DNA from: a virus
Lineage: Duplodnaviria > Heunggongvirae > Uroviricota > Caudoviricetes
Direction: 5' to 3' (one strand)
IMG/VR virus record: IMGVR_UViG_2648501787_000010
Length of the DNA: 9,406 nt
Shown: piece by piece, positions 1-5,859 of the stretch
Position numbering within the stretch: the stretch's first letter is position 1
Layout of the letters: each line of letters begins with the position of its first letter
Made by a program: the position numbers and the translations under genes
Notes under the pieces: generated by a model
Databases searched by the model: none
What the model saw: the letters and a program-made list of their open reading frames with translations, nothing else
What the model was told of the DNA's origin: nothing

Positions 1-282
1 CTACCGCCGCAACCGTTCCGGCTTCTTCCACTGGTAAGTATTTTTCGCGCTCTCCCTCCGTTGTTGAGAACGGCGACGGTATGCCAGCAACTCAAGGACT
101 CTTGTTCGTATGTTGCGCATATCCACGCCGTTAAGCTCAATACCATCACGGCGCATCACCTCAGCAACAACACGCACATAATTTTCAGCGGTCACGCTGT
201 CCGGCTGTGTGGCCTGTTCGTCATGCTGCTGGCTGATTCCGACGACGCGGCGGATTAATCCCAGTAGTTCGGCTTCAGTCAT
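1..282 (-). CDS. hypothetical protein (93 aa) immediately downstream of the Nu1-like small terminase gene
   Basis: Complete ORF: ATG at 280-282, stop TAG at 1-3 (minus). GAGGG Shine-Dalgarno-like motif a few nt upstream of the ATG. Sits where lambda would have the large terminase gene, but shows no resemblance to gpA N-terminus as I recall it. No recognisable motif. Confidence 0.5.
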   Translation of the reverse strand: MTEAELLGLIRRVVGISQQHDEQATQPDSVTAENYVRVVAEVMRRDGIELNGVDMRNIRTRVLELLAYRRRSQQRRESAKNTYQWKKPERLRR

Positions 283-355
283 TGTGCCCTCATCGTTCCG
301 ATAGCCTGGTGTCGTCGGGTCCTTCCTGGAATTATGGCCCGTTACGGGGCGGCGG

Positions 356-898
356 TTACTCGCCTTTGTTCTGTAGCAACTTCTCAGGCGCGTTTCCGGT
401 AGTTTCCATCAGGTAATCAGCCAGTATCTGTGGCAGGTTTTCGTCAAGTCTTGCACATGCGTTACATGCTTTGGCTATTTCCCTTTTTAGTTCATCCAGC
501 ATATACGGCCTTATATCGGGAAAGCGCCTTTGCATTGTGAGCGGGAGGCTGTCCATGATTGATGAAATCTGACTCGCTAGTTTTGAAATCGCGTAGATGC
601 AAAACTTTGTATCAATCACCTCGCCGCGTTCGCGCTCGTTTTTAAGTTCCTGCGCTTCCGCCTGGGCCGTCATTAATCTGATTCTTACGCGTAAAAGTTC
701 ATCATCATCAATCTCGCCTTTGTCGTTTGTAAGCTGGTTAATTGCATTGTTAACCCTATTGTCTATCACGCTAGCAACATCATAAAACGCCTCACGGCCT
801 TTACGCTCAACGGGAGTTACTCCCCACTTGTCGAACGCTGTCGCACTTACGCGGCAGCTTTGCGCCATAGTTTTTTTGTTCATCAGGTGCGATTTCAT
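356..898 (-). CDS. terminase small subunit, lambda gpNu1-like
   Basis: Translation aligns by eye along its length to lambda Nu1 as recalled from memory: N-terminal MNKK...KWGV..ERKGREAFYDVASVI versus lambda VNKK...NWQEQG..GGGKGNEVLYDSAAVI; central RLMTAQAEAQELKNERERGEVIDTKFCIYAISKLASQISSIMDSLPLTMQRRFP versus lambda RLTRAQADAQELKNARDSAEVVETAFCTFVLSRIAGEIASILDGLPLSVQRRFP. Lies directly downstream of a cos site, as in lambda. Start is ambiguous: in-frame ATGs at 898, 883 and 868 and a GTG at 910; 898 has a G-rich SD-like motif, while 883 gives the MNKK N-terminus that best matches lambda. Confidence 0.9.
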   Translation of the reverse strand: MKSHLMNKKTMAQSCRVSATAFDKWGVTPVERKGREAFYDVASVIDNRVNNAINQLTNDKGEIDDDELLRVRIRLMTAQAEAQELKNERERGEVIDTKFCIYAISKLASQISSIMDSLPLTMQRRFPDIRPYMLDELKREIAKACNACARLDENLPQILADYLMETTGNAPEKLLQNKGE

Positions 899-925
899 CA
901 ATATCCCCACTTAGTTAAGGTTTCA

Positions 926-1000
926 GGTTGGTGTGTTGGTGTTATCTTTCCCTTTTTATTCATAGAGATAGAGCGAAAAACAAAACCACCACCACCAACC
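926..1000 (-). repeat. imperfect inverted repeat between cosN and the terS start; candidate cosB-like binding elements for the small terminase
   Basis: Plus strand 926-943 GGTTGGTGTGTTGGTGTT and 984-1000 AACCACCACCACCAACC (reverse complement GGTTGGTGGTGGTGGTT) are inverted copies separated by about 40 bp of AT-rich DNA. They occupy the position of lambda cosB (R sites) but do not resemble the lambda R-site sequence as I recall it. Confidence 0.45.
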
Positions 1001-1085
1001 CGAAAAGGCTCATAAATAGCGAAAATCCGCAAGGTCGCCGCCCCGTAGCCTGCCGGATCGCCGGAAAGGACCCGCCAGCCAGAAC
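1000..1085 (-). other. lambda-type cohesive end site (cosQ/cosN); predicted 12-nt cohesive end GGGCGGCGACCT at 1032-1043 on the minus strand
   Basis: Minus-strand sequence GGGTCCTTTCCGGCGATCCGGCAGGCTACG-GGGCGGCGACCT-TGCGGATTTTCGCTATTTATGAGCCTTTTCG matches the junction of the lambda right end (...GGGTCCTTTCCGGTGATCCGACAGGTTACG) and left end (GGGCGGCGACCTCGCGGGTTTTCGCTATTTATGAAAATTTTCCGG), recalled from memory, with only scattered substitutions. Orientation and distance to the Nu1-like gene match lambda. Confidence 0.85.
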
Positions 1086-1099
1086 GGGCCCTAATTTCA

Positions 1100-1444
1100 T
1101 CAACCAATCAACTTATTGCGTCCTTTCAGGGCATTACGCCTGGCGCGTTCAATCTTGAGGCATAACGCCGCATCAGGTTTTTCGGGGGTGGGAACAAGGC
1201 AATAATTTGATGCGCGCGGAATGTTGTTAATCCACGCAACAACCTCGCTTAAATACCATGCCTTGCGCCCTTTCGTAACCTGTACGCGTTCGGGGAACTC
1301 TCCGCGAGCTTCAAGGTTTAGCAATGTGCGACGGCTAAGGGTTGTAAGCTCCACTACCTGATCCATATCAACAAGGCGCTCGCTTAAACTCATTTTGTCA
1401 TCGATATCTAATAGCTCTCGTAGCTGACTATCTCTTTCAATCAT
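1100..1444 (-). CDS. AlpA-family (MerR-like winged HTH) DNA-binding protein with C-terminal extension, 114 aa
   Basis: Core LVDMDQVVELTTLSRRTLLNLEARGEFPERVQVTKGRKAWYLSEVVAWI fits the AlpA/Xis-type pattern (HTH, then FP..V....GR.AW...EV.AWI). GAGGT SD about 6 nt upstream of the ATG at 1444, embedded in the 3' end of the gpD-like gene (9-bp gap), so it is co-transcribed with the capsid genes. Stop TGA at 1100-1102. Confidence 0.8.
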   Translation of the reverse strand: MIERDSQLRELLDIDDKMSLSERLVDMDQVVELTTLSRRTLLNLEARGEFPERVQVTKGRKAWYLSEVVAWINNIPRASNYCLVPTPEKPDAALCLKIERARRNALKGRNKLIG

Positions 1445-4104: not shown

Positions 4105-5859
4105 TTATAAAAACGCGTCGCACTCGTCTGTTGTTATTGCGTTAGTCTGCGTTACTCCCTTAACTTTCCGCGTAATATATTCATGTCCGTAAACTTTCGC
4201 GGCTGGCTTCATAGCCTTGCCAAAGTCATTTACGTTTAGCGGTTTGCTCCTGCCTGCGTACGCCATAAACGCCAGATAGACGCGGTAAAGGCTGTTTCTG
4301 GTCGTGTACTTCACTGAATCGCCACCGCCGCCCATCATCAGGCCGCGTGCTTCCTCCAGAAAATTCAGGAACTGGCAAAACTCAATAACCGGATCCGTCT
4401 GTTGCTTTATTGCCAGTGCTTCATCACCGTCACGCTGTTCAATGAGTAAAGCCCGTGCCTTTTCAGGGTCGGCAAAGTTCGCCAGCAAGCGGCGGATAAT
4501 GACAGGGATTTCAGCCGCGATCTTTTCCGGTAGCTCCCTGTCTTTTTCTGCCTCGCTTACGATGTTATCGAACCGGAATATCACCCGACGACGTGCCACA
4601 CCTCCGGCCCGTTCGGTGAATATCATCGGATTGTTATTGGTTGCCAGCACCACCGCCCTGATTACCGCCGTAAAACGCTTTTCATATTTCGGGTTAATTT
4701 CCACGGGGTCGCCGCCCGTGATTTTCTTGATGCCCGTTCCTTCGCCTGTATATTTCGGCTGGTCTGCCAGGACGATAAGCCGACTCCCGACAACCTGCGC
4801 ACGCCCACCAGCATCATCAAGCGATGTCATCTCAGCGCTTACTGTGTTCTGTTTCCCTGCCAGAAGGCTGGCTATGTGCGTAAATGTACTCTTGCCGCTC
4901 CCGCCGTCTCCTGTGGCCTCAATAAACATCTGCCAGTCGTACCGGTTCGCCATAATCATGTATAGCGCGGCACATATGCGCATCATCTTGCCCGGGTCTT
5001 TTCCGGCTGCGTGATCAAGCCATTTATGAAAGTTTGGCGCGTTGTCGCGGATATTCTCCCCTGGTACTGGCGGCGTGTACTCAATGCCGTTGTGTGTGGT
5101 GATCCAGTTATCAGGCGAGTGCGGGGAAAATTCCCCTGTTTTCAGGTCAAGCACGCCATTAGCGAACGGCAGCAAATCACCGGACGGCTCGCCCATTGGT
5201 TCGGCAATAACTTTTAACGCTTCAATGGCGTTACTGATTACGCGCTTGCTGAAAGTGGCTTTATGTTCTGAATAAATCGCCACCATTTCGCGGCTCAGTT
5301 CCATTGTGCTGACCGGACACCATACCCCGCCGCGCCAGACGTGGATGATTTCACTTTCCGGATGCACACAAACGCTATCAAAGCGATCGACAAGCAGTTG
5401 CGCGCGCTCACTGTCCGCCATCTGCGAAAGCTGCATTTTTTGCTTTACCGGAAGCTCAATAACCAGCCCATCAGAAAGATTCTGGCGTTCACGGGCCAGA
5501 TATTCGCGCCAGTTCTCCACCTTCTTACCGTGCATTCCCTCAGGGTAAAAATTTGCATCCTGTACGCCTGCCGCAGCCAGATTCTGACCAATCGCCTTAA
5601 TCATTACAGGCGCAAGATGTCCGGCTCTGTAGATACGAGCGTATGTTCGGCCTTCCGGTACAATCTGTAGATTATCCAGTTCGGATAGCTGCTGCTCTCC
5701 AAGCCACACAGGAGGCTCATTATCTCCGGCTGTACGCGCGTCGTGTTCCTGCCACTGTTTCGCGTGTGACCAGGCATCACTACCCGCAAAAATGATCACT
5801 TCGGTTTGTTCGTGTTTTATTCCGCGAGGCTGTTTTTTTACGTTCGGTGCCAGTTTCAT
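4105..5859 (-). CDS. P4-family DNA primase/helicase (replication initiator), 584 aa
   Basis: Walker A box GDGGSGKST followed by a hydrophobic-acidic Walker B-like segment (RLIVLADQ), with a large N-terminal domain, consistent with the P4 alpha / D5-type primase-helicase architecture. Start ATG 5857-5859 overlaps the stop of the upstream ORF (ATGA) and is preceded by a GGGGG SD. Stop TAA at 4105-4107. Confidence 0.9.
   Translation of the reverse strand: MKLAPNVKKQPRGIKHEQTEVIIFAGSDAWSHAKQWQEHDARTAGDNEPPVWLGEQQLSELDNLQIVPEGRTYARIYRAGHLAPVMIKAIGQNLAAAGVQDANFYPEGMHGKKVENWREYLARERQNLSDGLVIELPVKQKMQLSQMADSERAQLLVDRFDSVCVHPESEIIHVWRGGVWCPVSTMELSREMVAIYSEHKATFSKRVISNAIEALKVIAEPMGEPSGDLLPFANGVLDLKTGEFSPHSPDNWITTHNGIEYTPPVPGENIRDNAPNFHKWLDHAAGKDPGKMMRICAALYMIMANRYDWQMFIEATGDGGSGKSTFTHIASLLAGKQNTVSAEMTSLDDAGGRAQVVGSRLIVLADQPKYTGEGTGIKKITGGDPVEINPKYEKRFTAVIRAVVLATNNNPMIFTERAGGVARRRVIFRFDNIVSEAEKDRELPEKIAAEIPVIIRRLLANFADPEKARALLIEQRDGDEALAIKQQTDPVIEFCQFLNFLEEARGLMMGGGGDSVKYTTRNSLYRVYLAFMAYAGRSKPLNVNDFGKAMKPAAKVYGHEYITRKVKGVTQTNAITTDECDAFL

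Follow-up and report, generated by a model that had tools for sequence, protein, structure and literature searches.

A lambda-type cos site with a private cosB and its own small terminase in an Escherichia coli phage-inducible chromosomal island

Phage-inducible chromosomal islands (PICIs) spread virulence and anti-phage defence genes among enterobacteria, and the mode in which a PICI is packaged determines the phages able to mobilize it and the degree to which these suffer interference. For Gram-negative PICIs packaged at cos sites, the Rpp route is the one that has been elucidated so far. EcCICFT073 combines a lambda-like cosQ and cosN with a foreign cosB, lambda and phi80 require its cos1 site to transfer it, and the PICI cosB is read by a complex of Rpp with the small terminase, TerS (PMC6092414, PMC6739421). 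Lambda-like cosQ/cosN with a foreign cosB was described in E. coli PICIs between 2018 and 2022 (PMC6092414, PMC6739421, PMC9026076). Here, we analyzed a stretch of 9,406 nucleotides from the IMG/VR virus record IMGVR_UViG_2648501787_000010 (hereafter the window), which is a Gram-negative PICI, an E. coli phage satellite of ~10.7 kb. As its site, element type and logic are all known, the island belongs to this already described class. The right end of EcCICFT073 holds a capsid gene, a decoration protein gene, a 137-aa open reading frame (ORF), cos1, rppA (144 aa), an inverted cos2 and a 93-aa ORF. The window is syntenic with it and likewise has a lambda-like cosQ/cosN, a foreign cosB and no large terminase (TerL), and islands related to the window’s also carry an inverted second site, cos2. 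However, the rppA slot of the window is filled by a 180-aa TerS of the Nu1 family that has no BLASTP similarity to RppA, its cos2 is truncated, and the island is at tRNA-Pro instead of next to phoQ. Transfer was shown for EcCICFT073. We consider it likely (probability about 0.7 for the model as a whole) that the site serves as cos1, the place where packaging starts, in a TerS-encoding, EcCICFT073-related PICI, whose TerS reads a private cosB and recruits the gpA-type TerL of a helper phage to cut a helper-like cosN/cosQ.

Read on the minus strand from 1074 to 1010, the window consists of CGGGTCCTTTCCGGCGATCCGGCAGGCTACG, GGGCGGCGACCT and TGCGGATTTTCGCTATTTATGA in succession, and 60/65 of these positions (92%) are identical to the lambda end junction in an ungapped comparison in register with the nick. 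The lambda reference was the DE3 prophage, whose record annotates a ‘cos site’ beneath the match. By segment, the identity is 28/31 from -31 to -1, 12/12 over the cohesive end and 20/22 from +13 to +34; further right of the nick it is 9/13 over bp 35–47, 8/18 over bp 48–65 and 21/55 over bp 66–120. A blastn search of 50,697 phage records (2.3 Gb) yielded 100 lambdoid records, the best of them being 89.9% identical over 79 bp (window 1075 to 997, E = 1e-21). The cohesive end, when allowed at most one mismatch, had a mean of 0.03 matches in 200 dinucleotide shuffles. From the sequence, nicks would fall between 1044 and 1043 on the minus strand and between 1032 and 1031 on the plus strand, leaving 5' overhangs. 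The heptamer GGGTCCT upstream, the cosQ of lambda, is identical to lambda’s in both sequence and spacing. The initial annotation, made without database searches, had proposed a near-lambda cosQ/cosN on the minus strand, including the exact 12-nt cohesive end (1032–1043), with alignment to lambdoid cos regions as a check; both the blastn search and the ungapped comparison uphold it. The span that it gave, 1000–1085, is accurate to within ~10 bp at its outer edge, as 1076–1085 has no lambda match. A second near-match to the cohesive end, GGGCGGCGACCC at 4706–4717 (minus strand, one mismatch), was rejected as a cos site and considered a coding coincidence, as it corresponds to the primase codons I-T-G-G-D-P and has neither a cosQ nor lambda-like flanks.

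Where lambda has R3, its binding site for Nu1, the likeness in sequence collapses. The R3 site of lambda occupies bp 50–65, and Murialdo and Feiss placed the PICI R3 at bp 48–65 (PMC9026076). In the window, TGGTGGTGGTTTTGTT lies exactly at the position of lambda R3, yet only 8/18 bases are shared with lambda over bp 48–65. This motif is found 37 nt past the cohesive end in every TerS-type island that we compared. Islands of Enterobacter and Citrobacter carry AGGTGGTGGTGTTGTT at bp 50–65, which is 14/16 identical to TGGTGGTGGTTTTGTT and in the same register, and the R3 region of phage N15, GAGGTTGTTGTTT, resembles the island motif. A distal element, present in TerS-type islands as CAAYACACCAACCTGAA at bp 105–121 in inverted orientation, lies where lambda has R2. 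In the window, the R3-equivalent and the distal element form a 13-nt inverted repeat (12/13; 921–933 with 993–1005), a score that was matched by 1/200 shuffles, and 14/17 columns of the distal element are invariant in the E. coli relatives. The lambda cosB sequences (R3-I1(IHF)-R2-R1) are not present, and no third repeat (R1) was seen in the island cosB; what is kept is a geometry of two inverted elements at lambda distances, with private and unrelated sequences.

To follow the conservation of the site, 80 IMG/VR loci were gathered by their TerS protein, which avoids selecting on the cos DNA itself, and 62 distinct upstream regions were aligned. Majority-base frequency was 0.65 upstream of cosQ, 0.998 in cosQ (6/7 columns invariant), 0.78 in the cosQ–cosN spacer (constant length of 23 nt), 0.93 in the cohesive end, 0.96 over bp 13–34, 0.84 over bp 35–49, 0.992 at the R3 position, 0.90 over bp 66–104 and 0.95 at the R2 position, although these absolute values are inflated in that the 62 relatives are close (TerS 81–99% identical) and partly reflect shared ancestry. 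The contrasts of cosQ with the adjacent spacer and of R3 with bp 35–49 are informative, and the conservation maps onto the functional cos subsites. A scan of IMG/VR for the cohesive end together with the private R3 gave 72 matches; the exact pattern had 0 matches in the GTDB species representatives, of which the E. coli one evidently lacks the island. A 69-aa ORF (898–1107, minus strand) runs across the whole cos and overlaps the start of terS (TGATG). It matches PHROG 11159 and is called by PGAP in strain MEW, with no call in the identical sequence of strain N12. We treated it as a probably spurious gene call because variation among the 62 relatives is not concentrated at third codon positions.

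The protein encoded next to this site is a full-length Nu1 homolog. It matches Pfam PF07471 (Phage_Nu1) over residues 37–152 with E = 9e-24 and 84.3 bits (cut-off 30), as well as PHROG 57 (E = 4e-53), and its residues 6–166 align to lambda Nu1 with 37% identity (E = 2e-35). Its gene starts 145 bp after the cut site, against 190 in lambda (where Nu1 starts at +191), and this placement downstream of cos in the same orientation is phage-like, except that no gpA gene follows. The closest phage TerS is gp1 of N15 (48%), and no phage TerS reached 60% identity in a tblastn search of the 50,697 phage records. The island TerS and N15 gp1 share an 11-aa deletion and the recognition-helix sequence AFDKWG, and N15 has its G/T-rich R3 at the same place; however, N15 has the cohesive end GGGCGGCGTCCG, its own TerL and a cosB with a single R3, whereas in the island a further element follows distally in inverted orientation. 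The next relatives are the TerS proteins of the Enterobacter and Citrobacter islands, which are 54–56% identical overall. By domain, the window TerS is 73% (DNA-binding domain, DBD), 62% (middle) and 26% (C-terminus) identical to these, compared with 60%, 48% and 42% for N15 gp1 and 38%, 51% and 45% for lambda Nu1. The DBD and R3 are thus conserved together across genera while the TerL-binding end diverges, a pattern in the sequences that is expected if R3 is the site of TerS and the C-terminus tracks different helpers. The C-terminal region of Nu1 binds TerL, and Rpp proteins lack it (PMC9026076, PMC6739421). The N-terminus of the island TerS aligns with the DBDs of Nu1 and N15, and its predicted order of elements (H-H-E-E-H) would fit a winged helix-turn-helix, in a model of low confidence with a predicted local distance difference test score (pLDDT) of 56.

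We observed directly the anatomy of the site, the way in which it is conserved, its homologies and the lack of TerL and Rpp; we infer that TerS binds R3 and contacts TerL, that cutting occurs, and how many copies a capsid holds. Upon induction of a lambda-type helper, the island, judging by its family, would excise from tRNA-Pro and replicate via its own primase. Its Nu1-family TerS would bind TGGTGGTGGTTTTGTT, which is 50–65 bp to the right of the nick, and might also use the inverted distal element, and the C-terminal domain of TerS would recruit the helper’s gpA-type large terminase. TerL would then nick the helper-like cosN, leaving 12-nt 5' overhangs at 1032–1043, and translocate rightwards through terS, across att, into int and onward, until packaging ends at the downstream cosQ/cosN of the concatemer. 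In this way the island would keep the parts of cos that TerL reads (cosQ, cosN) matched to its helpers and privatize the cosB that TerS reads. Size is an issue for the model: lambda heads accept roughly 38–51 kb, a range into which four island copies, at about 43 kb, would fall. EcCICFT073 reportedly fills heads of phage size, and cos sites are skipped in the process (PMC6092414). It also provides the precedent for the model, as it has a working cos1 whose cosB is read by a factor specific to the PICI (PMC6092414, PMC6739421). Among staphylococcal satellites, the pac-type Staphylococcus aureus pathogenicity islands (SaPIs) with a TerS, such as SaPI1 and SaPIbov1, also redirect the helper TerL to the satellite site with a satellite TerS (reviewed in PMC6739421), but they do so by headful (pac) packaging and with Ppi, whereas the system of the window is cos-type, its ends are defined, and we identified no Ppi-like gene. 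The initial annotation had argued that the island would need a helper’s TerL, as the window encodes no gpA. This is supported at the sequence level, no TerL match having been found among the ORFs scanned, but it is incomplete, since the island’s own Nu1-type TerS and private cosB went unmentioned. With these, the island probably needs the TerL of the helper, and not necessarily its TerS.

Several observations weigh against this model, besides the closeness of the relatives mentioned above. First, bp +13, beside the bottom-strand nick, is T in the window and C in lambda and most relatives, so one symmetric cosN pair of lambda is lost. Second, the C-terminal, TerL-binding region of TerS is only 45% identical to that of lambda Nu1 and has a 12–14-aa extension. 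Third, the AlphaFold2 model of TerS (from a 19-sequence alignment) has low confidence (pLDDT 55.9; predicted template modelling score 0.27), and, with so poor a model, the winged-helix fold rests on the sequence alignment only. Fourth, the distal inverted element was not found in the Enterobacter and Citrobacter islands, making its role weaker than that of R3, and the IHF site WATCAANNNNTTR had no match within 2 mismatches between the two repeats. Finally, the TerS-encoding E. coli PICIs of IHE3034 and 18098 showed no transfer after induction of resident prophages in 2018 (PMC6092414). The coordinates of the cos subsites and of the genes are collected in Table 1.

Table 1. Features of the 9,406-nt window
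Feature	Position	Strand	Description
cosQ heptamer GGGTCCT	1073->1067	-	Positions -30..-24 from the top-strand nick; sequence and spacing as in lambda
cosQ–cosN spacer	1044..1066	-	Ends in the left cosN half-site ...CTACG
12-nt cohesive end GGGCGGCGACCT	1043->1032	-	Exact match to lambda
Right cosN flank and conserved spacer TGCGGATTTTCGCTATTTATGA	1010..1031	-	bp +13..+34; 20/22 as in lambda; 19/22 columns invariant in relatives
Private R3-equivalent TGGTGGTGGTTTTGTT	994->979	-	bp +50..+65; proposed site for the island TerS
Distal element CCAACACACCAACCTGA	923..939	-	bp +105..+121; position of lambda R2; inverted relative to the R3-equivalent; possible R2-equivalent
TerS, full-length Nu1 homolog, 180 aa	356-898	-	ATG at bp +146 from cosN
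Truncated inverted cos2	317-354	+	GGGTCCT (317-323), 23-nt spacer, then ACG and, past the nick position, GGGCGGCG; found by regex search
Tyrosine integrase, 413 aa	8165-9406	-	Pfam PF00589, PF22022, PF13356; at the tRNA-Pro end of the island
AlpA regulator/excisionase, 68 aa	7433-7639	-	Beside int; Pfam PF05930, E = 6e-9
Primase/replicase, 584 aa	4105-5859	-	D5_N, DUF5906 and Pox_D5 domains
gpE-like major capsid homolog, 346 aa	1805-2845	-	Pfam PF03864, E = 3e-41; PHROG 29, E = 1e-88
gpD-like head decoration protein, 113 aa	1454-1795	-	Pfam PF02924, E = 3e-16
AlpA-family helix-turn-helix protein, 114 aa	1100-1444	-	Directly upstream of cosQ; Pfam PF05930, E = 9e-8; PHROG 2790

The island TerS might instead work in the manner of Rpp, that is, only as a hetero-oligomer with the helper TerS that poisons helper packaging and is retargeted to the island cosB. 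Rpp is known to act as a mixed terminase via a Nu1-like DBD (PMC6739421), and residues 71–135 of the island TerS, the self-association region of the Nu1 family, are 48–51% identical to N15 and lambda and are the part best conserved relative to lambda, so mixed oligomers are plausible. Nevertheless, we consider this explanation unlikely. Rpp proteins are 144–153 aa long and lack the C-terminal 30–40 residues (PMC9026076), whereas the island TerS is full length and aligns with the TerL-binding end of Nu1, and it has no sequence similarity to RppA. Homology of TerS to Rpp proteins was rejected on the basis of BLASTP, which found none, and of phmmer against PDB chains, which returned nothing significant, only an ankyrin-repeat artefact; RppC would be expected among these chains, provided that the structures of PMC6739421 have been deposited. 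No Rpp-type protein was found in the window, and no other ORF occupies the syntenic slot.

It is less probable still, and in our view improbable, that the helper’s Nu1–gpA holoenzyme reads the site unaided, with the island TerS being irrelevant or serving for interference only. This is how P4 and the cos SaPIs (such as SaPIbov5) travel: like the window, they are satellites with a helper-type cos and no TerL, but they carry the helper’s whole cos and use the helper TerS (reviewed in 10.1101/2022.09.08.507074), whereas the window has a private cosB and its own TerS. The sequence of lambda R3 has been replaced in the window (8/18), although lambda itself depends critically on R3 and on how it is spaced (PMC9026076), and the private R3 is nearly invariant and conserved along with the TerS DBD across genera. 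In addition, the phage-type cos2 that would serve such a route has been deleted from the window island. The remaining scar lies in the gap that separates the 93-aa ORF from the end of terS; it breaks off 8 nt into the cohesive end, and the terS stop codon follows directly. Complete copies of cos2 with a phage-type R3/R2/R1 cosB are present in the islands of O157 FRIK944, strain 48 and CFT073, and alignment with these indicates that ~180–190 bp are missing from the window, comprising the rest of cosN and the phage-type R3/R2/R1 cosB. In EcCICFT073, deletion of cos2 raised lambda-mediated transfer (PMC6092414).

The relatives of the window island point to the kind of phage that its site is matched to. 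At a coverage of at least 80%, the module of cos and TerS is present in 761/5,426 complete E. coli genomes, including O157:H7, and strain N12 has an identical copy. In the Enterobacter and Citrobacter relatives, the order capsid, decoration protein, AlpA-like protein, cos, TerS is preserved, with GGGTCCT at -30 and the same cohesive end; their cosB beyond R3 is unrelated. Among the 62 aligned relatives, the cohesive end is GGGCGGCGACCT in 49, GGGCGTCAGGCG in 5 and of other sequence in 8. The alternatives found in related islands (island-type loci L011:1490–1730, L170, L173, L174, L177–L179, L184 and L185) are GGGCGTCAGGCG, GGGCGGAAGGCG and GGGCGGCAGACG, and the alleles of relatives other than GGGCGGCGACCT also occur at cos sites of lambda-type phages. 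For GGGCGTCAGGCG, we found both island-type sites that are followed by an island TerS and phage-type sites with the R3 and R2 of lambda (L169, L171, L172, L175, L176, L180–L183 and L186), of which L169, L181 and L186 are followed by Nu1 (98–99%) and gpA (98.6–100%). The cosQ–cosN spacers of the island-type and phage-type GGGCGTCAGGCG sites are identical, and the spacer variant of the window itself also occurs at lambda-type phage cos sites. These sequence comparisons suggest that the left half of cos has been exchanged between satellites and helpers: with alleles and spacers shared, the half read by TerL seems to be exchanged or to co-evolve with lambda-type phages, while the half read by TerS appears private. 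The island of strain 48, whose TerS is 87% identical to that of the window, interrupts the portal gene of a prophage with the cos, cosB, Nu1 and gpA of lambda. Taken together, the circumstantial evidence favors phages with lambda-type Nu1/gpA as the likely helper class.

As to where such islands are found, TerS-type islands are often located within the late genes of lambdoid prophages, splitting a gene of the presumptive helper. Examples are the portal-gene insertions in E. coli strain 48 (L006 with L013) and LH09-a (L010) and the Enterobacter/Citrobacter-type islands inside a prophage major capsid gene (L166–L168). These insertions match the ‘helper-embedded satellite’ arrangement (10.1101/2022.07.18.500453).

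Our literature searches found no characterized TerS-type cos PICI, the mention in 2018 being an annotation (PMC6092414). As far as we found, four features appear not to have been described: the specific R3-equivalent of the TerS-type islands, the conservation of this R3 together with the TerS DBD across genera, the cohesive-end alleles common to islands and lambda-type phages, and the deletion of cos2 in the window lineage. One tentative interpretation, which we would put at slightly below even odds, is that TerS-type cos PICIs follow a third strategy of piracy, in which a helper-derived half-cos read by TerL is combined with a private R3 and a full-length TerS of the island’s own, bypassing the helper TerS; EcCICFT073, in contrast, strictly requires the TerS of its helper. 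This interpretation would take in, as joint parts of the same tentative proposal, that the TerL-read half is refreshed by exchange with phages, that the C-terminus of TerS is fitted to the TerLs of different helpers, and that loss of the phage-type cos2 marks the commitment of the lineage to that route. TerS and the private R3 form a module that roughly one in seven of the complete E. coli genomes carries. The sequence gives a testable map consisting of the cut site, a candidate TerS-binding site at 979–994 and likely helpers of the lambda Nu1/gpA type. The module could also serve in cosmid-like delivery vectors with orthogonal packaging specificity.

The remaining genes of the window identify the element. 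All large ORFs are on the minus strand, in the order integrase, AlpA, DUF4222 protein, primase, single-stranded-DNA-binding protein, gpE-like protein, gpD-like protein, AlpA-family protein, cos, TerS and 93-aa ORF. The five core PICI components (integrase, AlpA-type regulator, primase-replicase, capsid homolog and small terminase) are present and co-oriented; it is this set, at about 10 kb and without other structural or lysis genes, that defines Proteobacterial PICIs in SatelliteFinder (PMC10085698). No large terminase was detected by Pfam or PHROG among the major ORFs scanned, which included all four of at least 346 aa, and no ORF scanned matched a portal, protease, HNH, head-tail connector, tail or lysis gene. 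The window thereby differs from the capsid-forming PICIs (cf-PICIs), which have the same int-alpA-pri backbone and capsid and TerS homologs but possess TerL, HNH, portal, protease and connector genes in addition (10.1101/2022.09.08.507074). For EcCICFT073, deleting neither the gpE nor the gpD homolog relieved interference with lambda (PMC6092414), and PICI capsid genes were reported not to be required for transfer (10.1101/2022.07.18.500453). The AlpA-family protein upstream of cosQ keeps its position in the relatives.

The island of E. coli MEW is 97% identical to that of the window, and the island of strain N12 is related; both are beside tRNA-Pro between yejM and narP, with tRNA-Pro ~210 bp beyond the integrase. 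The window itself has no flanks, but the near-identical islands are inserted at the 3' end of tRNA-Pro, and the site is uninterrupted in IHE3034. The junctions carry an imperfect direct repeat, AAT(C/A)CTCTCGTGCC, at the tRNA 3' end, and the island measures ~10.7 kb in N12. That the island is bounded by an integrase, as the initial annotation had it, is therefore well founded. The TerS-encoding IHE3034 island of the literature was also looked for at tRNA-Pro, where the site is empty, and was not located.

These features bear on whether the locus could be a decaying prophage remnant, with cos, Nu1, E and D as non-functional leftovers of a lambdoid prophage. All four have lambda homologs, and the truncated cos2 is evidence of deletions in this region. 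Against this, all ORFs are intact, the order E, D, AlpA-like, cos, terS is not phage-like, and no phage among the 50,697 records searched by tblastn has a match of at least 60% identity to the island TerS; furthermore, the module recurs in the 761 complete genomes and, with the same synteny, in other genera, all five core components are present (PMC10085698), and the empty site and precise tRNA-Pro junctions point to mobility. We consider a remnant very improbable. Chance resemblance to lambda cos, for which the second near-match at 4706–4717 might be cited, is refuted by the blastn and shuffle results given above.

A few minor observations concern the motifs and ORFs. At the R3 position of the window, the core GGTGGTGG (bp 51–58) reads as the reverse complement of ACCACCACC, the core of the Rpp-type R3 in EcCICFT073 cos1 (L004:2559–2660; bp 55–63), and the two cores are at nearly equal distances from cosN (window 979–996 compared). 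The distal element of TerS-type islands, ACACCAACC, has the same orientation as the Rpp-type R3 core. The relation of GGTGGTGG to ACCACCACC could be due to common ancestry with an inversion or to a triplet-repeat coincidence. The 93-aa ORF (1–282, minus strand) matches PHROG 1561, with no Pfam or PADLOC match, and is conserved in TerS-type as well as Rpp-type islands, where it sits at the far end just past cos2. In a 346-aa ORF with a GTG start (6388–7428, minus strand), only the last ~80 residues match a family (PHROG 6196, ‘transcriptional repressor’). It is annotated as Icd-like in relatives, and in MEW and N12 the region is broken up into calls that are short or pseudogenes, alongside a YlcI/YnfO gene in the opposite orientation. 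As for the island ends, the 16-bp direct repeat AACGTGTAGCTAAAAA was rejected as att, since comparison with the empty IHE3034 site puts the true junctions at the 3' end of tRNA-Pro and this repeat within the island, close to both of its ends. An exact direct repeat of 16 bp, TTTTTAGCTACACGTT with (T/A)AGCTATACG after it, is found slightly inward of both island ends and off the true att junctions (L009:2579–2594 and 13112–13127; L001:7984 and 18496), and may be an arm-type binding site of the integrase or a binding site of the excisionase.

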